From assembly GCA_964387845.1 (NCBI GenBank), contig CAYLXA010000002.1:192001-256000 (forward strand): 64,000 nucleotides of DNA, written 5' to 3'. A model generated the notes under the pieces. The model searched no databases and had not been told where the DNA came from. It saw only the letters and a list, made by a program, of their open reading frames with translations. This document shows positions 3,074-64,000 of the stretch, in pieces. This stretch comes from an uncultured bacterium. Lineage in GTDB: Bacteria > Omnitrophota > Omnitrophia > Omnitrophales > Abzuiibacteriaceae. A program made the translations under genes and the position numbers. Position 1 is the stretch's first letter. Each line of letters begins with the position of its first letter.

Positions 3074-4699
3074 CTAAACAGCGGGCTGTGCCGCTTTCTG
3101 AGGTGCGATGACCGCTGTCGGGGTCGAACTTGTCACTGTTGTGGCTTTCATCGGCTGACCTTGCGTGTCAACGATGGTTACCGTAATAAAAAACAAAGTC
3201 TCAATTTTTGAATTTTTATCTTCTCCTTGGTCTCTAAAGTGACGTCGAAACAATCTGCCTAAAACCGGGATTTTTGATGCGCCAGGCACCGAATCTTCTT
3301 GGACTTGCTCGGCATCTCGCGCCAGGCCGCCAATTGCAATTGTTTCTCCGTTATTAATCAATACCTGAGTTTGTGCTGTTGTGGTTGTGAAAGAAGGTGC
3401 GACGAAACTTGATGAAAACGTCACGTCATCACCGCGACTGCTCACTTCCGGACTTAGGTCGACTAAAATTTCATTGGCTTGATTGATATGCGGAGTCACG
3501 TTTAAAACAACTCCGATATCACGATATGTGAAGCCGGTTACCTCAAAGCTACCGGTTGTTTCGTTGCGTTCAAACGACGGAATCGGGATCTGGCTTCCGA
3601 CCTGAACTTTTGCGGTTTGATTGTTTAACACAACAATGCGCGGATTGGAAACGATCTTTGTATTATTTTTTGATCGCAAATACTTCAGAGTTGCGTTAAA
3701 TGAACTAAAATTTAAAGTTCCAAAAGTGAACGTGGGCCTGTGTGACGCAAGCGTTAAATCTGGCGAGCCAATCGGTGCAACGCTGGGATCATTAACAGTA
3801 TCGGCTACGTTACCTCCATAAAACGCGTTAAAATGCGTTAGCGGGTTCTGGTCGCGGGTACCGCTTCCCGGAGCAGACCACGGAAACGTGACCTGGCGAG
3901 ACGCTCCCGTTAAGGATCCTTGCGGCGTCCAATTGATACCCAAATCTTCATTCTGATCAAGCTGAGTTCTCACGATTTTTGCATCGATATAGACCTGAGG
4001 CGTGCTCTTATCAAGACTGCGGATAACCTGGCCGATTTTATACAAATTAGTAGGAATATCCGTAATGATTACCGTGTTGGCGCGAGGCACCGATTTCACA
4101 CGACCTCGCTCAGAGAGTATGTCTTTGATAGCCGACTCCACTTCTGCCGCTGTTGTGTAATTTAAAACAAACGTCTCGGTTATCAATTCTTCGGTTGCAA
4201 GATTCTCTTTTGTTGTAACTCTGACTATGTTCTGCTCGCGCTCATAAACATACCCATAAGTCCGCAAAACAACCTCGAGCGCCTTTTGCCAAGGCACATC
4301 TTGAAGTCTGATCGTTACCGTCCCATGCACCTCAGGCCCGGCAACAATGTTGACGCCGCTTTTCAAACTCAATACCCGCAAAACATTTAAAATGTCAGCA
4401 TCTTTAAAGTCTAAACTAACATTTCCCGGACTGGTCGTTCCTTCACTGGCTGTTTGAACTGCTTTTGTATCGGCTGAGGGTTCAGCTGACGGAACCTCTT
4501 CAGAAGGACTGTATTCGTAATTTTCATTACCCGGTGATAACTCTGTGCTGTTTTGATCCAGGGGCGCACTCGCTTCGTTGGTGGGTTCTTCGGCCGACAC
4601 TTTGGCGGGCTCGACTCCGATCACCAAAATCATAAGTATAATGATCCAGGCAATTCGTCTAATCATGCTGAAGCCCGGAAGCTGTTGTGGTTGTATCAT
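3074..4699 (-). CDS. pilQ: Type IV pilus secretin PilQ
   Basis: Signal peptide, an N-terminal region, and a C-terminal secretin domain (NPRIVVLNNQTAKVQVGSQIPIP...). It is the last gene of a pilMNOPQ-ordered operon. Confidence 0.8.
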   Translation of the reverse strand: MIQPQQLPGFSMIRRIAWIIILMILVIGVEPAKVSAEEPTNEASAPLDQNSTELSPGNENYEYSPSEEVPSAEPSADTKAVQTASEGTTSPGNVSLDFKDADILNVLRVLSLKSGVNIVAGPEVHGTVTIRLQDVPWQKALEVVLRTYGYVYEREQNIVRVTTKENLATEELITETFVLNYTTAAEVESAIKDILSERGRVKSVPRANTVIITDIPTNLYKIGQVIRSLDKSTPQVYIDAKIVRTQLDQNEDLGINWTPQGSLTGASRQVTFPWSAPGSGTRDQNPLTHFNAFYGGNVADTVNDPSVAPIGSPDLTLASHRPTFTFGTLNFSSFNATLKYLRSKNNTKIVSNPRIVVLNNQTAKVQVGSQIPIPSFERNETTGSFEVTGFTYRDIGVVLNVTPHINQANEILVDLSPEVSSRGDDVTFSSSFVAPSFTTTTAQTQVLINNGETIAIGGLARDAEQVQEDSVPGASKIPVLGRLFRRHFRDQGEDKNSKIETLFFITVTIVDTQGQPMKATTVTSSTPTAVIAPQKAAQPAV

Positions 4700-52061: not shown

Positions 52062-53462
52062 TTACCTGGCCAAGGGTACTGTTTCTTGATCCAGAGCAAC
52101 TTTTGCTTGCCAACCGAATCGGTTCTTAATTTCAGAGGCAAGATGTTCTGCGCCAAGCGGTTCTCCGTGGACAATATAAACGGAACCAGGCGGTTTTTTA
52201 AATCCTGAAAGCCATTTCAAGATTTCCTCTTTGTCCGCATGAGCAGAGATACCTTGGAGAATCTCGACTTTCGCACAAACCTGAACCTCCGCGCCATGAA
52301 TCCGAATTCTTTTGGCGCCTTCTTGCAACGACCTACCGCGAGTTCCGGCTGCCTGGAAGCCAGCCAAAAGAACCGTAGTCTTTGGGTCAGGAAGTCTTAA
52401 TTTTAAATGATGAAGAATACGGCCGCCGGTTGCCATGCCGCTTGCGGAAATAATGATCATGGGGCCTGAAAGATCATTAAGCTTCCTTGATTCCTGAGGC
52501 GTGCGTACGAGATGGTATTGCTTGCAGCACAAAGGACATTTGTGCTCATCCATTAATGTTTTCATGTCCAAATCGTGATCTTCGGGATGTCTGCAATAAA
52601 TATCTGAAACGTTAATAGCCATAGGGCTGTCGACATAAACTGGAAGTTCCGGAATTTGTTTTGCTTCTTCAAATTGACGAATCATCCAGATCAGTTCCTG
52701 CGCTCTTCCCACAGCAAACGCGGGTATGAGAAGAACGCCTCCTTTTTGCGCTGTCTCATTGATCACGCGCACAAATTCATTTTCTGGATCAGGTGGATGA
52801 ATCCGGTTGCCGTAAGTGGATTCGACTAACAAAATATCCGCTTCCGGAACAAATTCCGGATCACAAATCATCGGCTGATTCCAGCGACCCAGATCGCCTG
52901 AGAAAACGAGCTTTATAGGGCTCCCTTCTCCGATTTGCAACTCCACAATCGCAGAACCCAGAATGTGACCCGCGCGCCAAAATGAGCCCGCGATGCCTTT
53001 TGCAATTTGAAATGGTTTGTGGTATTCAACCGACCGAAGATATCCAAGCGCTTTTTCGGCGTCTTCTGTCGTGTAAAGAGGAAGAGCCGGTTTATGCTTG
53101 GAGCAACCGTGGCGATTTGCAAATTCCGCCTCTTCCTCTTGCAAATGAGCCGCGTCAAGAAGCATGACATTAAGAAGATCCTTTGTGCCCGATGTGCAAA
53201 ATATCTTTCCACGGAATCCTTCACGTACGAGTAAAGGCAAATAGCCCGAATGATCAATGTGTGCATGACTCAAAGCAATCGCATCCAAATCGGAGGGATT
53301 AAACGGCGGCTTCGCCCAATTCCGCAAGCGGAGTTGCTTCAAACCTTGAAAGAGGCCCGCATCAAGCAAAATCTGCGAACGACCCATCCGGATCAAATAT
53401 TTGGAACCCGTCACAGTTCCGGCACCCCCAAAAAATGATAAGGTTGGAGAAGATTTATCCAT
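52062..53462 (-). CDS. Metallo-beta-lactamase-fold beta-CASP family hydrolase (RNA-metabolising MBL type)
   Basis: LDAGLFQG...SHAHIDHSGYLPLL (the HxHxDH motif), the beta-CASP region, and the C-terminal motif set. The start was taken at MDKSS; the track ORF has 45 extra N-terminal codons. Confidence 0.7.
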   Translation of the reverse strand: MDKSSPTLSFFGGAGTVTGSKYLIRMGRSQILLDAGLFQGLKQLRLRNWAKPPFNPSDLDAIALSHAHIDHSGYLPLLVREGFRGKIFCTSGTKDLLNVMLLDAAHLQEEEAEFANRHGCSKHKPALPLYTTEDAEKALGYLRSVEYHKPFQIAKGIAGSFWRAGHILGSAIVELQIGEGSPIKLVFSGDLGRWNQPMICDPEFVPEADILLVESTYGNRIHPPDPENEFVRVINETAQKGGVLLIPAFAVGRAQELIWMIRQFEEAKQIPELPVYVDSPMAINVSDIYCRHPEDHDLDMKTLMDEHKCPLCCKQYHLVRTPQESRKLNDLSGPMIIISASGMATGGRILHHLKLRLPDPKTTVLLAGFQAAGTRGRSLQEGAKRIRIHGAEVQVCAKVEILQGISAHADKEEILKWLSGFKKPPGSVYIVHGEPLGAEHLASEIKNRFGWQAKVALDQETVPLAR

Positions 53463-54219
53463 GCTTTGTCGCCCTTGAAACATAACACGAAGGATCCGCC
53501 TCAAACTTTTGCGCACAGCCTTGAGAACAAAAGAAATAGATTTTGTTCTTGTGTATTTTTTTAACAACCGCCGTTTTGAGAAGAATCCACATCCCACAAA
53601 CAGGGTCGAGTTTCATGCCAGGTTTCGGATGATGCATCACACCCAAAGCGCTCTTGCCATTAAAATGGGACGGTTTCTTGAAATGTTCCTTTTGATAAAC
53701 GTTGATTAATCGTTTAATCAAATTTCCCGGTTCTTTTGAGTAAACAACACGGGCGCCGGTTTCCTTCTTGCAAGCAGCCAGAATATCCCTTGCGATGTTG
53801 CTGATTCCGCCCGTTCCAGTGAGCACACCGATTAATTTTCCTTCATCGTAAGCGATCGCAAGCTCACCCAAAGTTCCGCTCCGGCCGCCAATGATCACGA
53901 CGATATCCGAGCTGCGGATATTCACAACTTCGCGCCCCATAAGACCGCTTCCGGTATAAATCAGGATGTCGTGAAACTCGGTTGGGGAATGATACTTATT
54001 CACATGCTCGTCAAGACTAAGAGCAGGGGAAATTCCGACAACGATTCCATCTTCTTGCTTTGCCCCGCAAGCTGAAGCAAGTGGAAGGCCGGGACATGCT
54101 CCTGTAATGAGCACGCAGCCATTCTTCGCAATCGCTTCTCCTAAAAGGTGAGCTTTCTCAAGATGGAATTTCTTGATTTTCCCTGTAGCGCCGCCCATCA
54201 CACCGATTTTCACTCGCAT
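53455..54219 (-). CDS. Rossmann-fold LOG/SLOG (TIGR00725-like) domain fused to a C-terminal YHS metal-binding domain
   Basis: IGVMGGATG...IGGRSGTLGELAIAYDEGKLIGVL is the SLOG/TIGR00725-like pattern. The C-terminal DPVCGMWI...YFFCSQGCAQKF is the YHS domain consensus (DPVCGM...FCSxxCxxxF). The start was taken at MRVKIGVMGG. Confidence 0.55.
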   Translation of the reverse strand: MRVKIGVMGGATGKIKKFHLEKAHLLGEAIAKNGCVLITGACPGLPLASACGAKQEDGIVVGISPALSLDEHVNKYHSPTEFHDILIYTGSGLMGREVVNIRSSDIVVIIGGRSGTLGELAIAYDEGKLIGVLTGTGGISNIARDILAACKKETGARVVYSKEPGNLIKRLINVYQKEHFKKPSHFNGKSALGVMHHPKPGMKLDPVCGMWILLKTAVVKKIHKNKIYFFCSQGCAQKFEADPSCYVSRATKHG

Positions 54220-54278
54220 TCCGGCAATAGAAGGCGCGCTTGTCTTCCTATCGTTATGCATTATCCTTTTAATTCCCA

Positions 54279-54575
54279 TTAACTCTTCACTTTTTTCTCT
54301 AGCTCAGGTTCACGTTTTAACATTTTGTCAATGTATCGCTCCGTGTTTTTTTTCATAGCTTCCTTACACCTCTCAACGAGCGGGCAACAAACGCCATAGC
54401 GCTTCCCGTCAACAACGACAAAATCTTTCCCGTTCACGGGGTTGCCGCTCACAGGACAGTATTTGTTCCCAACCTCAACAACTTGAGTTGGTGTAGCCGG
54501 AGTTGCAGGGTCCGCATACAGATAAACGTTTCCAAACAGTATCGCAACCAACATCAAAAAAATTATTATTTTCAT
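54279..54575 (-). CDS. Secreted small protein with a YHS-like Cys motif (CPVSG...DGKRYGVCCPLVERC)
   Basis: Signal peptide, then YCPVSGNPVNGKDFVVVDGKRYGVCCP, which resembles the YHS/TRASH zinc-ribbon-like metal-binding pattern. Confidence 0.35.
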   Translation of the reverse strand: MKIIIFLMLVAILFGNVYLYADPATPATPTQVVEVGNKYCPVSGNPVNGKDFVVVDGKRYGVCCPLVERCKEAMKKNTERYIDKMLKREPELEKKVKS

Positions 54576-54588
54576 GACGGCGCCTCCT

Positions 54589-54789
54589 TTATTTTTTTAA
54601 TTCGAGATAATTTTTGCCGTTTTCTTGCTTCATCACCACATGACCTTCACGACAGAGCCAGCCTACTGCCATCAAACCTACTTCTTTTCCTATTGAAACT
54701 TTTTGAAGAACATGTTCAAGCTCCAAAGCACCGTGTTCATCGAGCATTTTCCAAATTTCACCGGCTGTGATTCCGATTTCTGTGATCAT
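54589..54789 (-). CDS. Small winged-helix protein (DUF2582-like), paralog A
   Basis: 66 aa: GITAGEIWKMLDEHG...LMAVGWLCREGHVVM. It is a clear paralog of 63609..63926, sharing GEIW..LDE and ALGWLCREGHV. Confidence 0.45.
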   Translation of the reverse strand: MITEIGITAGEIWKMLDEHGALELEHVLQKVSIGKEVGLMAVGWLCREGHVVMKQENGKNYLELKK

Positions 54790-54797
54790 GTTCTCAC

Positions 54798-55184
54798 TTA
54801 ACCACCTTCACAATACTTCCTGTGATCGTCCTTTCTCAAAAGCCGCTCATCCCAAAGCCAAATGAGCGCCAGAAAACCAAGCGACCAACCGCCGATTTGA
54901 GATGGCACTTGATGAAAAATGGCGGCAACTACGAAACTGCTTACCAAAAGAATAAGTAAAGTCGGCAAGAGATTTCGATGGCACAAAAACGACATGAAGC
55001 TTCTCAAGAGAAAAACGGATAGAGAAACCAGCATCACGATTCGCAATATCTTTTCGCTTGCCATCCAACCGAGTCCAATTGCGCTAAGCGAAGCGACTAA
55101 AAAAGGCAGCGCAAAGAAGCACAACCCGGCGCACATCAGACTCAAGGGACTTGCAAAGTTACATTTTTTCATCGATGCGCTCAA
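54798..55184 (-). CDS. Hypothetical membrane protein (four transmembrane helices) with paired Cys in the first helix
   Basis: MCAGLCFFALPFLVASL...; MerT/MerC-like topology, but no definitive motif. Confidence 0.3.
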   Translation of the reverse strand: MSASMKKCNFASPLSLMCAGLCFFALPFLVASLSAIGLGWMASEKILRIVMLVSLSVFLLRSFMSFLCHRNLLPTLLILLVSSFVVAAIFHQVPSQIGGWSLGFLALIWLWDERLLRKDDHRKYCEGG

Positions 55185-55214
55185 ATGTTATAAATTACCG
55201 GGTGCGAGAAATGT

Positions 55215-56198
55215 TTACGTTGCCAAAATCGGTAACAGTTTCAAACGAAATGGGTTTAACAACTTCTTCTCTGTAAACGCTTGCCGAAAGGGCGTCATCA
55301 CAAGCTGCCCTTTTATTTTTCCGACAGCAACTTTCGTTTTCCCATGAATCATCTGCTCCGCAGCAAAAGCTCCCAATTCGGTTGCGAGAATTCTGTCCTG
55401 CGCTGTCGGTGATCCGCCCCGCTGCAGATGCCCCAAAACAACAACCCGATACTCATTGCCGCTCATTCTCTTAAGTTTTTCAGCGACTTGAAATGCGCCT
55501 CCCTCTTTCTCCCCTTCCGCAATAACAAGGATGCTGCTTGTTTTTCCTTTTTTCCTTGATAAACACAGCCGGCCACACACTTCCTTCAGCACAGTTTTGA
55601 TTTCCGGCGTCAACACCTCTTCGGCTCCGCCCGCAATTCCCACATCGAGCGCAATAAACCCTGCTTCTCGGCCCATGACCTCAACGAGAAAAAAACGTTC
55701 GTGTGACTCTGCCGTGTCACGAATCTTATCAATCGCATCCAAAGCAGTGTTGACTGCTGTGTCGTAGCCAATTGTCGAATCTGTTCCATACAAATCGTTA
55801 TCGATGGTCCCCGGAATTCCAATGATTTTGCCTTTCCATATTTTAGAAAGATCAAGTGCTCCGCGATACGTTCCATTTCCACCAATCACAAGCAGACCGT
55901 CAATTTCCCTTTGCTCTAAATTAAATTTTGCTTGTTTTAAACCCTTGAGTGTTTCAAACTCTTTGCAACGCGAAGTTTTGATAATTGTTCCACCTCTTTG
56001 AATAATATTAGAAACCGAACGAGAGCCAAGTTCGATAAACTCATTCTTAATTAACCCCTGATAACCTCTTAAAACACCGCAGACGTTAAGACCTGAGTGG
56101 GTTGCAATACGTACGACAGCCCGTATGGCTGCGTTCATTCCGGGCGCGTCTCCGCCGCTTGTGAGCACTGCTATTCTTTTAAGCTTTTCTTTTGGCAT
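55215..56198 (-). CDS. pfkA: 6-phosphofructokinase, ATP-dependent type signature
   Basis: AVLTSGGDAPGMNAAIRAVV, IGGNGTYRGA (a GGxGx block) and GIPGTIDNDL (Gly in PGTIDND), in contrast to the PKTIDND/GGEDT in the other copy at 25427..26452. Confidence 0.8.
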   Translation of the reverse strand: MPKEKLKRIAVLTSGGDAPGMNAAIRAVVRIATHSGLNVCGVLRGYQGLIKNEFIELGSRSVSNIIQRGGTIIKTSRCKEFETLKGLKQAKFNLEQREIDGLLVIGGNGTYRGALDLSKIWKGKIIGIPGTIDNDLYGTDSTIGYDTAVNTALDAIDKIRDTAESHERFFLVEVMGREAGFIALDVGIAGGAEEVLTPEIKTVLKEVCGRLCLSRKKGKTSSILVIAEGEKEGGAFQVAEKLKRMSGNEYRVVVLGHLQRGGSPTAQDRILATELGAFAAEQMIHGKTKVAVGKIKGQLVMTPFRQAFTEKKLLNPFRLKLLPILAT

Positions 56199-56471
56199 AA
56201 TCTGACGCTCTCAATCAATCGAATTCACCGAAGCATTGGGCACATGCTCTTCCAGTGCAGTAACGGGCAACCATAAAACAGAAAAAACAAAGCGACGCCT
56301 AGAAGCAAAACGACCGTCCAAAGCAGAACATGCTTGTTTCGTCTTTGAATGTTGCCCACAACACTTCGGAAAAGTGATTGCAGTGCGAGCCGAAGTTCTA
56401 GGTTTGCCTCCTCTATGCTCTCACCCAAATTTCTCTGATTCTCCATGACGCACCTCCCATTTTAACTTATC

Positions 56472-56831
56472 TCACTTGCTTTGAAGCTTAGTAGCCTGTA
56501 TGCGATGCCATTTAACAAACTCCGAATAAGACCTCTTCAACTTTTCAGCGGCTTTGATCACCGCATCACAATGTTTTTCCATTTCTTCAATACGGCCAGT
56601 CCAATGAATTTTTTCATTCGTTCCATAGGTAAAGCGATACTCTTTTTTCATTTTGAGGTGGCTCGCGATTTCAATATCCAGCTGGGCAATCTTCTCCTCA
56701 TAAGAAATCGCCTGTTCAAGGTGATCTGCTACTAAGCGACCTTGCTCTGCTTCTGCCTGCAAAGGGTAAACCCACAGCAAATTTAGAATAATAAAAACAT
56801 TTATTGTTTTTGTAAGATTTTTTCTTTGCAT
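56472..56831 (-). CDS. Secreted hypothetical protein
   Basis: Start taken at MQRKNLTKTINVFIILNLLWVYPLQA (signal peptide); helical and charged; no motif. Confidence 0.3.
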   Translation of the reverse strand: MQRKNLTKTINVFIILNLLWVYPLQAEAEQGRLVADHLEQAISYEEKIAQLDIEIASHLKMKKEYRFTYGTNEKIHWTGRIEEMEKHCDAVIKAAEKLKRSYSEFVKWHRIQATKLQSK

Positions 56832-56895
56832 CTTTGCCTCCAGCCGTTCAGACCAATTTATATTTCTGCTCCGATACATTATAAATTTACAACAT

Positions 56896-57234
56896 TCATA
56901 CATGATGACATGAGCATTCCTTGCCATTGCATTTGCAGGGTTTTGGTGCGTGTTCGATAAGACTTGACTTCAAATTCTCTGCAACGGTTTCGGTGCCCTT
57001 TAAAGATTCTGCGAGCACGGAAAGGCTTGTCGCTTGAGTCCCAAGTTTTCTGCCCGTATTTTGGATGTGTTCAAGTAATGCAAGCTTCGCGCACTCATCG
57101 CACGTTGGAAGCTGTCCCAAAGCTTCTTCAAAGCGTTGGGCTGCTTTGACTATATTCTCAAGCGCGGAGCGCAATTCATGCAAACCTATCCGCTTCCAAA
57201 TTTGTTCTGACGATGAGAAAAGATCTTCTGACAT
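56896..57234 (-). CDS. Hypothetical protein with a C-terminal Cys/His cluster (CKCNGKECSCHH)
   Basis: Helical N-terminal part plus a C-terminal CxCxxxxCxCHH; a candidate metal-binding tail within the copper region. Confidence 0.3.
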   Translation of the reverse strand: MSEDLFSSSEQIWKRIGLHELRSALENIVKAAQRFEEALGQLPTCDECAKLALLEHIQNTGRKLGTQATSLSVLAESLKGTETVAENLKSSLIEHAPKPCKCNGKECSCHHV

Positions 57235-57573
57235 TTAAAACACCTCCATCACACAATTGACTGTCCCAAAAGGATTTGGAACGCATTCCTCCGGAAGTTG
57301 ATCGCTCTGCCAGACTCCGTCCGCAAGAAACCGGTATTCATACCGGCCGGGAGTGAGCTCAATGGTTACTTTCCATGTCCCATCTTCTTCTTTTTTGAGC
57401 GGATTTTTTGTCAGATCCCAATTGTTGAATGTGCCCGCAATTTGAACTTGTTTTGCTTCAGGGGCGTAGAATTCAAATGATGTTTTTCTCTTCCGAGCTT
57501 TTCTTTCTTTGCTTACGTTTTTTGTTTCCATTTTCGACCTCCTCGTTTTGTGAAATCTTAACTTACAATCCAA
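57235..57573 (-). CDS. Glycogen-binding-domain (CBM48 / AMPK-beta-like E-set) protein
   Basis: FEFYAPEAKQVQIAGTFNNWD...GTWKVTIELTPGRYEYRFLADGVWQSD matches the CBM48/isoamylase-N pattern (F.N.W...G.W......G.Y.YKF.VDG.W). Confidence 0.5.
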   Translation of the reverse strand: MDCKLRFHKTRRSKMETKNVSKERKARKRKTSFEFYAPEAKQVQIAGTFNNWDLTKNPLKKEEDGTWKVTIELTPGRYEYRFLADGVWQSDQLPEECVPNPFGTVNCVMEVF

Positions 57574-60500
57574 GCTGCTTTTCCTTCCTTCATTTCAAAT
57601 TTCCATTTCCAAATAGCATAGACCACGGGATAAACCAAGAGTTCCAAGATGAACGACGTGAAAAGTCCTCCGATCATGGGAGTTGCGATCCGCTTCATCA
57701 CGTCAGAACCTGCGCCGCTCGCCCACATGATGGGAATGAGGCCCATAAAAGCAGCCATCACTGTCATCATTTTTGGCCGGACACGTTTTACAGCGCCATG
57801 AATAATTGCTTCTTCCAAATCTTCCTCTGTTTTCATTTTTCCTTTTTCAATGGCATCATGATAAGAAAGATCTAGAAAGAGAAGCATGAAGACACCCGTC
57901 TCCGCGTCCAGACCCATTAAAGCAATCATGCCGACCCAAACGGCGATTGAAACATTGTAGCCCAAAATCCAAAGCAGCCACACGGCGCCAATTAAAGAAA
58001 ATGGAACCGCGAGAAGCACAATGCCTGTTTTGACCGCGGATCGCGTATTCATATAAAGAAGAATACAAATCAAGAAGAGGGTGAGCGGAAGCACGACTTT
58101 TAAGCGCTCTTTCACACGGATCATATTTTCATATTGACCGCTCCAGAGAAGCGCATAACCTGGCTGAAGTTTAAGCTCCTTGGCCACAATCTTTTTTGCT
58201 TCTTCAACGTAAGTTCCAATGTCCCGTCCGGCCATATCCACATAAACATAACCAGCCAGAAGGCCGTTTTCATTTCGGATCATCGCAGGACCTGTCACCA
58301 TGCGAATATCTGCAAGCTGCGTGATGGGAATGTGCTGACCTGCCATCGTTGGAACAAGCACGCGTTTTAATTTCTCAATGTCGTCTCTCAGTTCTCGGGG
58401 ATAACGAACATTCACAGGATAACGTTCTCTGCCTTCAATGGTCGTCGTAATGTTTTCACCACCAATGGCGGACATAATCACCATCTGAACGTCAGCGATT
58501 GAAAGACCATAGCGGGCAATCTCATCACGTTTTATATCGAAATCAATAAAATAACCACCTGCCACACGTTCAGCGTAAATACTTCGAGTGCCCGGAACAT
58601 CTTTTAAAATCATCTCAAGATGAGTCCCTATTTTTTCAATTTCATTAATGTCTGATCCTAAGACTTTAATTCCGATCGGCGTCCTGACACCTGTTGTCAA
58701 CATATCAATCCTGTTTTTAATGGGCATTGTCCACGCGTTCGTAGTTCCGGGAAGCTTAAGCGCTTGATCCATTTCATTAATGAGATCTTCATGGGAAATC
58801 CGTTCCGGCCAAATATATTCAAATGGCCATTTGAACCATTCGGGCATCCATTTGGAATACCAACGGGTCTTCTTTCGCCATTCACCGTGTGGTTTCAGCG
58901 TCACCACCGTTTCCCCCATGGAAAATGGAGCTGGATCTGTCGAACTCTCGATACGGCCAGATTTTCCGAAAACGCGCTCAACTTCTGGGAACGATTTTAG
59001 AATCTGATCTTGTTTCTTAAGAAGCTTCTGCGCGCTTGCCACAGAAATGCCAGGCAATGTCGTCGGCATATAAAGAAGAGAGCCTTCCCATAAAGGCGGC
59101 ATGAATTCAGATCCTAAACGCAAATAGATTGGAATCGTCGTCAACACAAGGAAAAGTGCTGTCACAATCGTCGTCTTGCGATGTTTTAGAACGAAACGAC
59201 AAACGGGTTCATAGATCCTGAAAAGAACTTTGCTGACGGGATGTTTTTCTTCCGGATAATAAGTCCCGACCGCAACCGTCGTGGCAATTTTGGAAGCCCA
59301 TTTTGATTTAAATTTAAAAGGTTCCATTCTGGTAAAAAGCATTCGCAGAGCTGGATCTAACGTAATGGCCAAGATAGCGGCAACCGCCATCGCCAAATTC
59401 TTTGCCCAAGCAAGCGGTTTAAAAAGACGGCCTTCTTGATCAACCAAGGTGAAAATGGGCATGAAAGAAACGGCTATTACAAGAAGCGAGAAAAAAACAG
59501 CAGGGCCAACTTCTTTTAAAGCTTGAAGCCGGATCGCATGATAATCGCCTTTTCGCCCACCCTCGATCCATTGTTCCAGTCGCTTGTACGCATTTTCGAC
59601 TTCCACAATAGCACCGTCTACCAAGACGCCGATGGAAATCGCTATTCCTGAAAGTGACATAATGTTCGAGGTTAAATTCATCCGGTGAAGAAAAATAAAA
59701 GAAAGCAAAACTGAAATTGGAATGGTGACAATTGGAATAACCGCGGATGGGAAATGCCAGAGAAATATCAGAATGACGATGCTGACAATGATCATTTCCT
59801 CAAACAGTTGGTGTTTTAAAGTATCGATGGCATGTTCGATTAATTCAGAGCGGTCATAGGTCACGACCAGTTCAACGCCGACAGGAAGAGAAGGCCCCAA
59901 ATCTTTGATCTTTGCTTTGACACGGTTAATCACGTTGAGCGCATTTTCTCCAGAGCGCATGATAACGGTGCCTGTGACCGTATCGCCTTGGCCATCAAGA
60001 TCAGCGAGACCGCGCCGGATTTCAGGCCCAAGCGAAACCGTCCCGATGTGCTTCACTAAGACGGGCGTTCCTTTGGAATCCACCGCGACCACAATTTGTT
60101 CAAAATCCTCAACTGATTTTCCGTAACCGCGCCCTCTCACCATATATTCCGCGCCCGAAAATTCAATTAATCGCCCGCCCACTTCTTGATTTCCGCTGCG
60201 AATGGCTTCCACCACTTTCGTCAGCGGAATGTTATAGGCGAGGAGTTTGTTGGGATCTACGGTTATTTGATATTGCTTGACGAAACCGCCGAGTGTTGCG
60301 ACTTCCGCTACACCGGAAACACTTTGAAGGTGGTAACGAAGATACCAATCTTGAAAGGATCTTAATTCTTGTAGATTGTGCTTGCCGGTTTTATCAACCA
60401 ATGCGTATTGAAAAACCCACCCGACACCAGTCGCGTCAGGGCCAAGTTCAGTTTGGACGCCTTGCGGAAGGCGCGGGATGATTTTGCTTAAATATTCAAG

Positions 60501-60878
60501 TGTGCGGCTTCTCGCCCAATATAGATCCGTACCGTCCTTAAAAATGACGTACACATAGGAAAACCCAAAATCTGAAAATCCCCGAATGGCTTTGACATTT
60601 GGCGCACCCAACATCGAAGTGACAATGGGGTAAGTCACTTGGTCTTCAATAATGTCCGGGCTTCTGTCCCATCTTGAATAAATAATGACTTGCGTATCAG
60701 AAAGATCAGGAATCGCATCGAGTGGAATACTTTTAATCGACCACACAGCTGCGGCAATCGCAACAGCAGTGAGAATAAAAATAAGGAATTTGTTATGCGC
60801 TGAGAATTCGATGATTTTTTCGACAAAACCGCCCTGCCTCAGCTTGTGCGATTGAAGCCCTTCTTTTTCATCCGCCAT
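57558..60878 (-). CDS. cusA: Heavy-metal efflux RND permease, CusA/CzcA family (likely Cu/Ag)
   Basis: 1106 aa and 12 transmembrane helices with the typical HME-RND blocks (AIPDLSDTQVIIYS..., GLDAETGVFMLLFLD). The cusCBA gene order and the metal-binding adaptor support Cu/Ag specificity. Confidence 0.85.
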   Translation of the reverse strand: MADEKEGLQSHKLRQGGFVEKIIEFSAHNKFLIFILTAVAIAAAVWSIKSIPLDAIPDLSDTQVIIYSRWDRSPDIIEDQVTYPIVTSMLGAPNVKAIRGFSDFGFSYVYVIFKDGTDLYWARSRTLEYLSKIIPRLPQGVQTELGPDATGVGWVFQYALVDKTGKHNLQELRSFQDWYLRYHLQSVSGVAEVATLGGFVKQYQITVDPNKLLAYNIPLTKVVEAIRSGNQEVGGRLIEFSGAEYMVRGRGYGKSVEDFEQIVVAVDSKGTPVLVKHIGTVSLGPEIRRGLADLDGQGDTVTGTVIMRSGENALNVINRVKAKIKDLGPSLPVGVELVVTYDRSELIEHAIDTLKHQLFEEMIIVSIVILIFLWHFPSAVIPIVTIPISVLLSFIFLHRMNLTSNIMSLSGIAISIGVLVDGAIVEVENAYKRLEQWIEGGRKGDYHAIRLQALKEVGPAVFFSLLVIAVSFMPIFTLVDQEGRLFKPLAWAKNLAMAVAAILAITLDPALRMLFTRMEPFKFKSKWASKIATTVAVGTYYPEEKHPVSKVLFRIYEPVCRFVLKHRKTTIVTALFLVLTTIPIYLRLGSEFMPPLWEGSLLYMPTTLPGISVASAQKLLKKQDQILKSFPEVERVFGKSGRIESSTDPAPFSMGETVVTLKPHGEWRKKTRWYSKWMPEWFKWPFEYIWPERISHEDLINEMDQALKLPGTTNAWTMPIKNRIDMLTTGVRTPIGIKVLGSDINEIEKIGTHLEMILKDVPGTRSIYAERVAGGYFIDFDIKRDEIARYGLSIADVQMVIMSAIGGENITTTIEGRERYPVNVRYPRELRDDIEKLKRVLVPTMAGQHIPITQLADIRMVTGPAMIRNENGLLAGYVYVDMAGRDIGTYVEEAKKIVAKELKLQPGYALLWSGQYENMIRVKERLKVVLPLTLFLICILLYMNTRSAVKTGIVLLAVPFSLIGAVWLLWILGYNVSIAVWVGMIALMGLDAETGVFMLLFLDLSYHDAIEKGKMKTEEDLEEAIIHGAVKRVRPKMMTVMAAFMGLIPIMWASGAGSDVMKRIATPMIGGLFTSFILELLVYPVVYAIWKWKFEMKEGKAAWIVS

Positions 60879-62145
60879 GTTGATGCCCTCCGCCTCCGCC
60901 CATTCCCTGAAGCGCCGCTTTTAAACGGCTTTCCGAGTCAATCAGAAAATTGCCGCTTGTCACAACGATCTCACCTTCCTCAAGCCCGCTTTTGACTTGA
61001 TAACCATTTTCCGTTTTGACTCCCAAGCTTACTTCGCGGGGCTCAAAGACACCTCCTTCTTTCATCACGAAAACAACGTTTTTCTCGCCCGTTGAAAATA
61101 CCGCTTCCGTGGGAACCGTCACGCTTTCTCCCAAATTAATTTTGAGCATCGCGTTCGCGTACATTTCCGGTTTGAGCAAACCTTCCGGATTCTCAAGAAT
61201 CGCCCGAACGCGCACAGACCGCGTCATGGGATCGAGAACAGAATCAATCGAACGGATAACTCCTTGAACCTTTTTATCCGGAACAGACGGAATTTCAATT
61301 TCAAGCGTATCGCCAACTTTCACAAGGGGGATTTCATATTCATAAATCGGCGCATAAAGCCACACGCGGCCCCCCACATCGGAATAAAGAAGAGAGCGAT
61401 CCGGTTTTCCCAAAGTTTCTATTTCGCCGACAAGATCGCTGCTTAATCCGAGAAGTCGCAGCTTAATTTTGGCGGAATCGACAAGCTTCGCGGCTTGTTC
61501 TTTAATTTCCGGAACTGCGTTTTCGGCTTTTTTGAGAGCGCTAATCGCTTGTAAATACTCTTCTTGTGCTTGATAAAGCTCAGGGTCATAAGCAATGCGG
61601 CCTACGGTGCGTATCGTTTTTTCAATAACCATTTTTTTCACCGGCGCCGTCTCAATTCCGATTGCCTGTTGTTTGTCATGCGATACAGTCACTTTGGCGT
61701 AGCCCTCGGGCGCCATTTGTTTAATCAGGATTCCTAAATCTTCACCGCAGTGAGGGCATTTGCCCGTTTTCGCAATTTCTTCCGTTATGGCAAACATGCA
61801 CTTGCCCATTTTGCATTTATGAAGAAGGCAAATCTCTCCGGGTTTCATATTCATTAACTCTTTTATGGTTAATTCTTTAACAGCATCTGCGCCAGTGGGC
61901 GTAGCTTGTTGATGAGCTTCGTGAGAAGATTGTTCGCTGGTCTCTTCTTTTTTCACGAGCGACATATTGCAGATTGGGCAGCTGCCCGGGCGGTCGGACG
62001 TGTAAGTCGGATGCATGGGACAGTAATAAAGAGCCTTTTTTGATGATACTTTTTGACCCGCACCTTGGATAATTCCAGATTGGTAAGCCCAAATTCCTCC
62101 AAAGACGACAATAAAGATTAAAGCAATTGGAATAATTCTTTTCAT
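60868..62145 (-). CDS. cusB: Efflux RND periplasmic adaptor (CusB-like) with an N-terminal CxxC heavy-metal-binding domain
   Basis: YYCPMHPTYTSDRPGSCPICNMSLV is the heavy-metal-binding domain motif (YxCPMHP...PGxCPxC.M.L) seen in CusB/CzcB-type adaptors. There is a second Cys cluster (CLLHKCKMGKC...CPHCGEDLG), beta-barrel/lipoyl domains, and a C-terminal HQHGG. Confidence 0.8.
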   Translation of the reverse strand: MKRIIPIALIFIVVFGGIWAYQSGIIQGAGQKVSSKKALYYCPMHPTYTSDRPGSCPICNMSLVKKEETSEQSSHEAHQQATPTGADAVKELTIKELMNMKPGEICLLHKCKMGKCMFAITEEIAKTGKCPHCGEDLGILIKQMAPEGYAKVTVSHDKQQAIGIETAPVKKMVIEKTIRTVGRIAYDPELYQAQEEYLQAISALKKAENAVPEIKEQAAKLVDSAKIKLRLLGLSSDLVGEIETLGKPDRSLLYSDVGGRVWLYAPIYEYEIPLVKVGDTLEIEIPSVPDKKVQGVIRSIDSVLDPMTRSVRVRAILENPEGLLKPEMYANAMLKINLGESVTVPTEAVFSTGEKNVVFVMKEGGVFEPREVSLGVKTENGYQVKSGLEEGEIVVTSGNFLIDSESRLKAALQGMGGGGGHQHGG

Positions 62146-63518
62146 TTTTTCTCCTCGCTCTGAATTAAATCAATACCCGTAGCGCGTACTAAATCCGCAA
62201 AACTACTGACTGCTTCCGTATAAAAACGAATCTGCGTGAGTTTTGCGTTCAAATAAACGCGCTCACTGTCTAATAGATTCAAAAAATCCATTTTGCCAGC
62301 CTCATATCCTGCTTGATCGGCAGAGAGAGCAAGCTTGGCTTGAGGGATGACAGCGGTTTCATAAAGGTCTGAAATGTCGCTTGCTGCTTTGTATCTGTGA
62401 TAAGCGTCTTTGACTTCATAAAAGGTTGTGTTCTTAGCTTCCAGGAGTTTCGCTTGACTTGCTTCAAACATCTTTTGTGCTTCCTGAATTTCAGGAATAA
62501 TCCGGTTCTGCCAAATAGGAAGGTTAAACCGTATGGGAAACATCCAGCTATCCTTGCCGTCGTCAGGATCCTCGGTCATTCCGGAACCGACCTGCGTGTA
62601 TTCAAATCCGATATTGATATCCGGAATATTGGCAAGCTTGGCAAGCGTCTTCGCCTGTCCGCTTCGCGCCACCATGGCTTCCATTTCTTTGATTTCTTGG
62701 CGATTTCGAACCGCCAAATTTACAAGCTCTACCAAAGATTGTTTTAAAACCGGCTTTTCGGGAGTGTTCGGAGAACCTAACGAAAGCATCGGATCACGGT
62801 CTAAAAGAGCATTGATCATTGCAGTGGTCGTTTCCCGTTCCCGTTTGAGCATAAATAATTTCTCCAATGTCATTGAGACTTCGGCTTGAGCTTTCGCCAC
62901 ATCGCGCTGAGCGCCTGACAGATTGGAATAGCGCGCCTCGGCCACGCTTTCAAATTTCTTGAGAAGCTCCTTGACCTCCTCAATGGTTTGAAGCGATTGA
63001 TCGACATAATAAAGTTCGCTGTAAAGCTTAGTGAGTTGATTGATCACATCGCGCTGCACGGCAAGATACTTTTGATATTTTGCACGTGCCTCTTCATTTG
63101 CCATTTTTCCTTTCTTAACCAGCTTCAAGGGAAAGGGCATCTCCTGCGAAACCATAACCCTGTTTTCTTGAGGCCCGACTCGCGTCTCGACCATTTCCCC
63201 CATCAGGTCAAAACCTGCCATCGGATCCGGAAGCGCAGAATCGATCCAAATTCTTTTTTTGGCGGCAAGCCATTCGGCATGAGCGGCCACAATTCCGGGA
63301 TTTTTTTCTCTGGCCATTTTGATCAAATCAGGCAGAAGTAAAACCAATTCCGCCGGTGCTTTTTCTGTCGGAGGAATCTCTGGCGCTTGAGTTTCTTGGG
63401 CATGGGTGGCTGCGGCGAAGTTCATCGCTAAGATGAAGAACAGAAAGTATTTAAAAAAAATCCGCCTCGATCTTTTCTCACAACCCGCTTTTTTTAGATT
63501 AACCATAAATGATTCCAC
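62142..63518 (-). CDS. cusC: TolC-family outer-membrane efflux protein (CusC-like)
   Basis: Signal peptide and two OEP repeats; first gene of the cusCBA-ordered operon; its stop overlaps the cusB start by 4 nt. Confidence 0.8.
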   Translation of the reverse strand: MESFMVNLKKAGCEKRSRRIFFKYFLFFILAMNFAAATHAQETQAPEIPPTEKAPAELVLLLPDLIKMAREKNPGIVAAHAEWLAAKKRIWIDSALPDPMAGFDLMGEMVETRVGPQENRVMVSQEMPFPLKLVKKGKMANEEARAKYQKYLAVQRDVINQLTKLYSELYYVDQSLQTIEEVKELLKKFESVAEARYSNLSGAQRDVAKAQAEVSMTLEKLFMLKRERETTTAMINALLDRDPMLSLGSPNTPEKPVLKQSLVELVNLAVRNRQEIKEMEAMVARSGQAKTLAKLANIPDINIGFEYTQVGSGMTEDPDDGKDSWMFPIRFNLPIWQNRIIPEIQEAQKMFEASQAKLLEAKNTTFYEVKDAYHRYKAASDISDLYETAVIPQAKLALSADQAGYEAGKMDFLNLLDSERVYLNAKLTQIRFYTEAVSSFADLVRATGIDLIQSEEKK

Positions 63519-63608
63519 ACCTTAATCCTAACGAACAAGAAAAAGCATCGTACCAAAGAATAAAAGCATAATTAACGTGAGGATGTTAAAGAATCCAGTC
63601 CTGTGGAT

Positions 63609-63926
63609 TCACTCTTTGCTCCTCTCACTGAGCATGACAAACAATTTCCCATTCGTCCTTAGCATCAGCACATGTCCTTCCCGGCAGAGCCATCCCAAAG
63701 CCATAAGAGTAATTACCCGATTCTGTGACAGGCGGCTTGTCAGCAATGAAAACTCAAGCGGGTCTTCCTCATCCAGGACAGTCCAGATTTCACCGGCAGC
63801 AATACCGATCTTTGTAATTGTGGAAGTATCTGAAAAAATCCTTACGTTCATTTCTTGAAGAACGCTTGACAATTCTGATTTTGTGGCAACAAAAGTTTCC
63901 GTTATCATATTCGCCTCCTGAAGCAA
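63609..63926 (-). CDS. Small winged-helix protein (DUF2582-like), paralog B, immediately upstream of cusCBA
   Basis: IGIAAGEIWTVLDEEDPLEF...LMALGWLCREGHVLM aligns with paralog A. The true start may be an internal Met (e.g. MNVRIF at ~63851). Confidence 0.45.
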   Translation of the reverse strand: MLQEANMITETFVATKSELSSVLQEMNVRIFSDTSTITKIGIAAGEIWTVLDEEDPLEFSLLTSRLSQNRVITLMALGWLCREGHVLMLRTNGKLFVMLSERSKE

Positions 63927-64000
63927 TTACGCTTCCATGCCGGCCATGTTCATTTGTTTCATCGATTCCTGAAGTTTGGCGTGCAGCTGTGCTAAGTATT
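63927..64000 (-). CDS. 3' end of an unidentified gene that runs off the window end (C-terminus ...YLAQLHAKLQESMKQMNMAGMEA*)
   Basis: Open minus-strand frame ending at a TAA at 63927..63929; it is followed by an AGGAGG Shine-Dalgarno for the downstream gene. Confidence 0.25.
   Translation of the reverse strand, partial: YLAQLHAKLQESMKQMNMAGMEA

Follow-up and report, generated by a model that had tools for sequence, protein, structure and literature searches.

A cysteine-bearing branch of DUF2582 winged-helix proteins in heavy-metal export islands of Omnitrophota

The two DUF2582 genes and their family

We analysed a 64,000-nucleotide stretch of DNA from an uncultured Omnitrophota bacterium (contig CAYLXA010000002.1, positions 192,001 to 256,000; hereafter the window), whose minus strand carries two small paralogous genes of the DUF2582 family (PF10771), called A and B, among genes for heavy-metal export. 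Both are members of a separate paralogous branch of DUF2582 that has been recruited into heavy-metal export islands of Omnitrophota, and that is marked by a cysteine in the motif GWLCREGH.

Paralog A (54589..54789, minus strand) is a stand-alone winged-helix protein of 66 residues. Paralog B (63609..63908, minus strand) has 99 residues, 33 of which form an N-terminal extension that is found in B-type proteins and missing from A-type ones. Both match the Pfam hidden Markov model (HMM) of DUF2582 over profile positions 5-64 of 65, with 52.4 bits (E 6e-14) for A and 49.1 bits (E 6e-13) for B, well above the gathering score of 24.2 bits, and the two proteins are 51% identical across 65 residues (E 3e-24). 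An earlier, sequence-only reading of the window had already recognized two small DUF2582-like paralogs in these minus-strand open reading frames (ORFs), and had noted in both the motif GEIW...LDE...ALGWLCREGHV; both points hold in the profile matches and in the alignment. Its start for B, a TTG at 63926, probably makes the gene too long at the 5' end. The ATG at 63908 is most likely the correct one, as it is preceded by AGGAGG 7 nt upstream and public gene calls also use the 99-residue form. No third copy was found in the window by tblastn. Apart from PF10771, A and B matched no Pfam family (none of HTH_5 or HTH_20 at E <= 0.01) and no NCBIfam model. They are not members of the MerR (CueR), CsoR/RcnR or CopY copper-sensor families of Pfam, and as winged helices with one Cys they lack the ferredoxin-like fold and CxxC pair of the HMA/CopZ metallochaperones.

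The AlphaFold2 model of A (pLDDT 95.4) has three helices (H1, residues 2-19; H2, 24-30; H3, 35-48) and a wing of two strands (51-56 and 59-64). In this model helix 3 is predicted to carry Cys46 at its C-terminal end, and His50 to occupy the turn that leads into the wing. Foldseek placed first the two solved members of the family, the nuclear magnetic resonance structures 2L01 (BVU3908) and 2L02 (BT2368), at TMq 0.78-0.79. Next came the DNA-binding winged helices of AspA, Z-alpha, three ArsR-family proteins (HlyU, SqrR and SrnR) and MarR, and protein-binding winged helices were matched too, such as the ScpA C-terminal domain 5h66_C (TMq 0.78). The proteins of 2L01 and 2L02 resemble A and B by a significant sequence match, by fold and by a GWLxRE at the end of helix 3. 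However, GWLARE[GND]K is the form of the motif in these Bacteroides proteins and in the bulk of the family, whereas A and B have Cys (Cys46) for Ala and His (His50) for Lys and sit in metal-export islands; G43, W44, R47 and E48 of the motif are invariant.

A HMMER scan of 1.84 billion cluster representatives returned 1,465 at E <= 1e-3, and the family features given here were read from the 150 best of them. The signature GWLARE[GND]K spans the end of helix 3 and the start of the wing, and many members consist of two to four tandem repeats. A few (among representatives P0133-P0279) carry C-terminal transmembrane (TM) segments, coiled coils or histone-like tails rich in Lys, Ala and Pro (P0272, P0274). 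The ten longer members that we scanned have no informative fusion to an enzymatic, transporter or metal-binding domain, their additional parts being coiled coils, TM segments and tandem repeats only. Both solved structures contain two chains, which together with the tandem repeats fits a dimeric unit. We found no paper that takes DUF2582, BT2368 or BVU3908 as its subject, PF10771 being mentioned only in passing; the family had been called uncharacterised, and in the literature searched it is. Close relatives retrieved by a word-indexed search numbered 118 with A as query and 14 with B, and those with a named source were almost all from Omnitrophota.

Genes around A and B

Between 52 and 64 kb the minus strand is an unbroken run of genes, from the end of a Metal_resist gene to a gene for a beta-CASP metallo-beta-lactamase. 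The Metal_resist gene (PF13801, CnrX/ZraP-like; 63927..64000) is cut by the window edge, and what remains encodes the C-terminal end of the protein, equal to the last 23 residues of its counterpart on the public contig L005. B begins 18 bp past its stop. Downstream of B come an outer-membrane efflux protein (OEP, TolC/CusC-like; 62142..63518; PF02321, E 4e-39), a membrane-fusion protein (MFP) of the CusB/CzcB type with an N-terminal HMBD (60868..62145; PF16576, PF19335 HMBD E 8e-16, PF00529) and a heavy-metal efflux (HME) permease of the resistance-nodulation-division (RND) class and the CusA/CzcA family (57558..60878; TIGR00914, 1089 bits for a cutoff of 701). A permease, an adaptor and an outer-membrane protein such as make up CusCBA are thus present, and no CusF was found.

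The RND gene is followed directly by a 98-residue CBM48/AMPK-beta-like protein (57235..57531; PF16561, PF02922), and then by a 112-residue protein with a Cys/His-rich tail (CDEC, C-terminal CKCNGKECSCHHV; 56896..57234) that has no significant Pfam family, two small ORFs, 6-phosphofructokinase (PFK; 55215..56198) and a MerC-like membrane protein (54798..55184; PF03203, 28.7 bits for a cutoff of 27.6), whose gene probably starts at the ATG at 55172. A begins 8 bp past the stop of this MerC-like ORF. Its own downstream neighbour, after 13 bp, encodes a secreted Cys-rich YHS-like protein of 98 residues (54279..54575) with a signal-peptide-like N-terminus; it has no Pfam match of its own, yet is 41% identical (E 1e-6) to a YHS-domain protein of the related locus L012. 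A fusion of SLOG (LDcluster4) and YHS domains (53455..54279; PF18306 E 5e-44, PF04945 YHS E 2e-9) and the beta-CASP protein (RNase J/CPSF-like; 52062..53597) complete the run, all genes being on the minus strand. NCBIfam had no model matching the YHS-like or the MerC-like protein, and the window contains no P1B ATPase. The metal-related neighbours named by the sequence-only reading are therefore in place, namely the efflux set downstream of B and the YHS-like and SLOG-YHS genes downstream of A. The accompanying claim that A and B each head an operon is not compatible with the 8-bp and 18-bp distances to the genes that precede them.

The same reading had stated that no other regulator was present. 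This holds only inside the window and is an artefact of its edge, because the public contigs L001, L005 and L006, which match the window at 100% identity, continue upstream of B, where L005 (1..2397) and L006 encode an extracytoplasmic function (ECF) sigma factor, a 135-residue secreted protein, an anti-sigma factor of the zinc-anti-sigma (ZAS) type and the complete Metal_resist protein. The sigma factor (205 residues, Sigma70_r2/r4_2; TIGR02937, 99.7 bits for a cutoff of 42.9) lies 2.2 kb upstream of the OEP gene. The anti-sigma candidate (165 residues) has the zinc-anti-sigma motif HVKACFSC, one TM segment and a weak match to TIGR03988 (E 9e-6), and the Metal_resist protein (153 residues, precomputed PF13801 match) is membrane-anchored by an N-terminal TM segment and periplasmic. 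Judged from their sequences, these four genes appear to form a complete extracytoplasmic metal-signalling module adjoining the RND pump. A and B are thus not the sole candidate regulators at this locus.

ECF control of an HME-RND pump is known from Cupriavidus metallidurans, in the cnrYXH-cnrCBA system. Here, too, OEP-MFP-RND is directly preceded by genes for an ECF sigma factor, an anti-sigma factor of the membrane and a PF13801 protein that is periplasmic and anchored in the membrane. The arrangement differs in that the anti-sigma factor is of the ZAS type (HxxxCxxC) and not CnrY-like, and that the 135-residue secreted protein and a DUF2582 gene are inserted, neither of which belongs to the described Cnr system. 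This raises the question of whether B, taken by itself, works within the ECF module, where it could for instance modulate the sigma or the anti-sigma factor, its gene sharing a transcript with those of the sigma factor, the anti-sigma factor and the CnrX-like protein. B has the same orientation as the Metal_resist gene that it follows so closely, this gene order is repeated in the related L004 (whose A-orthologue is 83% identical), and the N-terminal extension sets the B-type proteins apart. However, the arrangement is seen only in these two closely related genomes, and no sigma factor is encoded near the other members of the Cys branch. We regard such a role as quite unlikely.

A Cys branch in metal islands and an Ala branch beside envelope machines

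DUF2582 loci were collected from one genome per species and from Joint Genome Institute metagenomes, with flanks of up to 10 kb, taking the best 80 of at least 513 genome matches and the best 80 of at least 552 metagenome matches. The large majority of the Omnitrophota members read GWLAREGH, with Ala at the Cys position. More than 100 of these Ala-type homologues (the non-Cys loci among L010, L012-L091 and L092-L171) lie in a conserved ExbBD-TonB/pilus cluster, with the order UvrA, a large protein, ExbB, ExbD, TonB_C, a small zinc-ribbon protein, DUF2582, a 130-residue protein, a small HTH_17 protein, PilM, PilO, a T2SS-B/C-like protein and a secretin. There is no metal gene in this conserved string, and such surroundings suggest a housekeeping function in connection with envelope machines. 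A metal association of DUF2582 as a whole is ruled out, nearly all of the 80 species-representative loci being non-Cys and located in the ExbBD-TonB/pilus cluster.

The Cys-type genes have other neighbours. When redundant loci and those shorter than 4 kb are set aside, a metal gene lies within 10 kb in 8/8 Cys loci as compared with 2/102 non-Cys loci (Fisher p = 1e-10, a value that the kinship of the loci makes optimistic), and one of the two metal-positive non-Cys loci is L056, a Ser variant of the Cys branch. Some of the metal-gene queries came from the same loci; the neighbours were also annotated independently with Pfam and NCBIfam. Independent Pfam annotation of six further Cys loci (L172-L177) showed a metal island in every case, which brings the Cys total to 14/14. 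The expectation that family members would neighbour cus/cop genes across genomes is therefore borne out for the Cys branch and fails for DUF2582 overall. In a neighbour-joining tree the metal-locus proteins group apart from the housekeeping branch. One Cys-bearing protein, P0128, falls outside the branch in this tree; it comes from a 2-kb contig on which no metal gene is visible. With this contig counted in, metal genes accompany the Cys-type protein at 14 of 15 independent loci.

The metal genes seen in the Cys-branch clusters encode HME-RND pumps, P1B ATPases, cation diffusion facilitators (CDF), multicopper oxidases, HMBD/YHS proteins, MerC, ArsR, DUF302 and Sod_Cu. A typical cassette reads OEP-MFP-RND, a 150-residue protein, DUF2582, P1B ATPase, HMBD/YHS and CDF, and is found as such in L173, L175 and L177. 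Usually the Cys-branch gene stands within the cassette, downstream of the RND gene, and is followed immediately by the gene of a P1B ATPase that lacks an HMA domain. In L013, L016, L096 and the Ser variant L056, DUF2582 stands immediately upstream of this ATPase with DUF302, ArsR or CDF nearby, and L174 has the order DUF2582, P1B ATPase, HMBD and Sod_Cu. L012 combines DtxR, YHS, OEP-MFP-RND, P-II, DUF2582, DsbA and P1B ATPase, and L094 a multicopper oxidase/HMBD gene, a homologue of the 112-residue protein, DUF2582 and CDF. In L172 we read CDF, OEP, multicopper oxidase, HMBD, DUF2231 and DUF2582, and in L008 OEP-MFP-RND, three small genes, two DUF2582 genes, PFK-PK, a further DUF2582 gene, CBM48 and a multicopper oxidase. 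L176 (a possible RND gene, CBM48, a 111-residue protein, MerC, DUF2582) mirrors the surroundings of A. The association thus spans at least four gene orders, in which DUF2582 is found before the OEP gene, after MerC, before the ATPase or after DUF2231/multicopper oxidase, and protein identities of 45-86%.

The HMA-less P1B ATPase, of 630 residues, is the commonest immediate downstream partner of the Cys-branch protein (L013, 1339..3231; L016, L056, L012, L096 and L173-L175), and in seven loci (L013, L016, L056, L096, L173, L174 and L175) the two genes overlap or are at most 28 nt apart. It has a CxC/His tail at its N-terminus, APC (SPC in L016) before DKTGT, and HE[ST]SE in its last helix. In NCBIfam it falls into the heavy-metal and Cd-type subfamilies, its best named matches being of the Zn/Cd/Pb type.

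What metal do these islands handle? Copper or silver is plausible as a substrate, from the YHS, HMBD, multicopper oxidase and Sod_Cu neighbours, but copper specificity is not implied, because the related cassettes also hold CDF transporters and ATPases with Zn/Cd/Pb-type matches. This bears on a version of the sequence-only reading in which A and B, each at the head of an operon, would be the primary and only Cu/Ag-responsive regulators. In its favour, B lies 90 bp upstream of OEP-MFP-RND with a conserved intergenic region, and copper-type genes are present both in the window (HMBD and YHS) and in related loci (multicopper oxidase and Sod_Cu). Nevertheless, neither gene is the first of its own string, the sigma/anti-sigma/CnrX-like module stands directly upstream of B, and the pairing with Zn/Cd/Pb-type ATPases and CDF transporters in related cassettes does not imply copper specificity. 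We therefore consider this version very improbable.

Regulator, accessory protein or passenger

As a new accessory or regulator of metal resistance, A and B make good candidates. We favour, with a probability of about 0.4, the reading in which they are minimal dimeric metal- or thiol-responsive DNA-binding regulators of the cassette. The protein would be a small cytoplasmic dimer, in which Cys46, and perhaps His50, from each subunit would sense soft metal ions, and DNA binding by the dimer would regulate the export cassette in a metal- or thiol-responsive manner, by analogy with an ArsR/CadC-type repressor encoded beside its own pump. At the present locus this cytoplasmic input would act alongside a periplasmic one, from the ECF sigma/anti-sigma/CnrX-like genes just upstream of B. 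We prefer this reading because of the fold, the habit of the family to form dimers and tandem repeats, the ArsR/CadC-like placement and the lack of another recognisable regulator in most cassettes, among whose neighbours we did not find other proteins with a DNA-binding fold or known metal sensors.

ArsR/SmtB sensors are commonly encoded beside exporters (cadC-cadA, ziaR-ziaA, czrA-czrB) and typically use thiolate and imidazole ligands. A and B are like them in being small winged-helix proteins beside P1B ATPase, CDF or RND genes, with fold similarity to HlyU, SqrR and SrnR. They are unlike them in having no HTH_5/HTH_20 match, one Cys and a gene that is usually mid-operon; moreover, the 66 residues of A hold three helices and a wing, without the alpha1 and alpha5 helices that form the dimer and the metal sites of ArsR.

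Several observations weigh against a regulatory function. The Cys-branch genes are placed in the middle of operons, other regulators do occur in some islands (the ECF sigma factor at the window locus, ArsR in L016 with HTH_5 at 6e-8, and DtxR in L012), and no operator was identified. The proteins are acidic (mean net charge -2, isoelectric point about 5.9) and hydrophobic residues make up most of their helix 3 (LMALGWLC), which begins with acidic ones; this is unusual for a recognition helix and fits rather a protein-protein or dimer interface. Each A/B-type protein has only one Cys. Three members that stay in metal loci no longer have it, the residue being Arg in the positional orthologue of B in L004 (LEWLRRDGLV, where the His is lost as well), Val in a copy of L008 and Ser in that of L056. 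His50 is near-invariant in the non-metal branch too, with a conservation equal to that in the metal branch. The Cys-x-x-x-His pair proposed earlier as a metal site is thus present in A and B, but its His is not specific to the metal loci and its Cys is not retained in all of them.

These features of the protein and the position of its gene are also the ground on which the main rival of the regulator reading has to be judged. A non-DNA-binding accessory or metal-handling partner would bind through its winged helix to the P1B ATPase without HMA domain, or else to the RND or MerC protein, and would deliver metal to it or gate its activity, in the manner of CopZ or of a regulatory subunit. The tight coupling or overlap with the gene of an ATPase that has no HMA domain and only a short CxC/His N-terminal tail would be expected of such a partner, as would an acidic protein with a hydrophobic and invariant helix 3. 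The non-Cys branch is likewise encoded among membrane machines, ExbBD-TonB and PilMOQ. Furthermore, protein-binding winged helices are among the Foldseek matches, and HHsearch sometimes assigns PF10771 to the winged helix at the C-terminus of DprA, a domain that recruits ComM (10.1101/2024.10.21.619469). The C-terminal winged helices of ScpA (5h66_C) and DprA are comparable with A and B in size and fold, although they are domains of larger proteins with known partners. On the other side, the single Cys is not a CxxC pair and is lost in three members, the window keeps two DUF2582 copies without having a P1B ATPase, and the ten longer members that we scanned show no fusion to a transporter or a metal-binding domain. 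An accessory function of this kind is possible, though we lean towards thinking it unlikely.

Both the regulator and the accessory readings give the Cys branch a function in metal export. It could instead consist of general DUF2582 proteins that keep the role of the housekeeping branch and are carried on mobile metal islands, the change from Ala to Cys being a neutral lineage marker. This change is conservative, the Cys is dispensable in L004-B, L008-VH and L056, the His is not specific to the branch, and P0128, a Cys-bearing protein outside the branch, has no metal neighbours on its 2-kb contig. The islands themselves may be mobile. Indeed, the cassettes of L013 (4798..7050) and L056 (8362..9506) are followed by a homologous ORF of 243-266 residues, L013 also contains an integrase-like ORF, and restriction-modification genes are found in L172 (9792..17600). 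The breadth of the association, over at least four gene orders and 45-86% protein identity, speaks against simple carriage, and two copies have been retained in one island. Moreover, the branches are not separated by the Cys alone. Cys46 replaces the near-invariant Ala of the GWLAREG motif, and positions 14, 15, 19, 37 and 41 also separate the Cys from the Ala branch, which fits divergence after duplication and is expected from functional divergence. We thus find a passenger role unlikely.

Taking the regulator reading to its full extent, the Cys branch would consist of unrecognised minimal metalloregulators, of 66 residues with one winged helix and one Cys per subunit, that sense cytoplasmic soft metals, control a modular RND/P1B-ATPase/CDF cassette in Omnitrophota and arose by duplication of a housekeeping winged-helix protein of the Ton/pilus cluster. 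This extended proposal is a tentative one, and as a whole it is somewhat doubtful. Whichever reading is adopted, a branch of DUF2582 now has a sharp genomic context, the heavy-metal export islands of an uncultivated phylum, in a family for which there were two structures and no function in the literature searched. If these proteins sense metals, the few families of metal sensors would gain a new scaffold of very small size, and metal resistance would become easier to annotate in the genomes of candidate phyla. If they bind the pumps, they would be a new accessory of HMA-less P1B ATPases and HME-RND systems. The contrast between the Cys branch and the Ala housekeeping branch provides, under either reading, a natural experiment on neofunctionalisation.

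DNA elements and other recurrent genes

The region between B and the OEP gene (63519..63608, minus strand) contains conserved sequence blocks, and the stretch that spans it is about 80% identical to its counterpart in L004. A perfect 7-bp inverted repeat, GAATCCA-N6-TGGATTC, lies immediately past the stop codon of B; a role as operator or terminator finds no support, since the repeat is not preserved in L004. A palindrome shared by the regions upstream of the OEP genes was not found in the six loci compared. The sequence ACGCTATTTCT is common to L172 (about 4580..4600) and L173 (about 3170..3190), upstream of the OEP genes in both, and the similar GCTTTTATTCTTTGG is found in the window (about 63545..63560) and in L004. 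These may be a putative promoter or operator element.

In Parabacteroides a DUF2582 copy adjoins a Sus-like locus, and in a plasmid collection a single distant DUF2582 match was obtained, without metal context.

The 112-residue protein of the window is a recurrent partner of the Cys-branch protein. A homologue (E 1e-59) is encoded directly upstream of DUF2582 in L094, another was found in L004 by phmmer, and in L004 and L176 there are Pfam-less gene calls of 111 residues at a comparable position. With its Cys/His tail this protein could itself be a metal binder or a sensor.

Two carbohydrate-related genes also recur. The one for the CBM48-like protein, a glycogen-binding module, follows the RND gene directly in related islands as well and is present in the metal islands of L004, L008 and L176; that for PFK is present in L004 and L008. 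At the far end of the string, the beta-CASP ORF as listed overlaps the SLOG-YHS gene, and public calls begin at an internal Met, giving a protein of 466 residues. The pairing of SLOG-YHS with beta-CASP is kept in L004.

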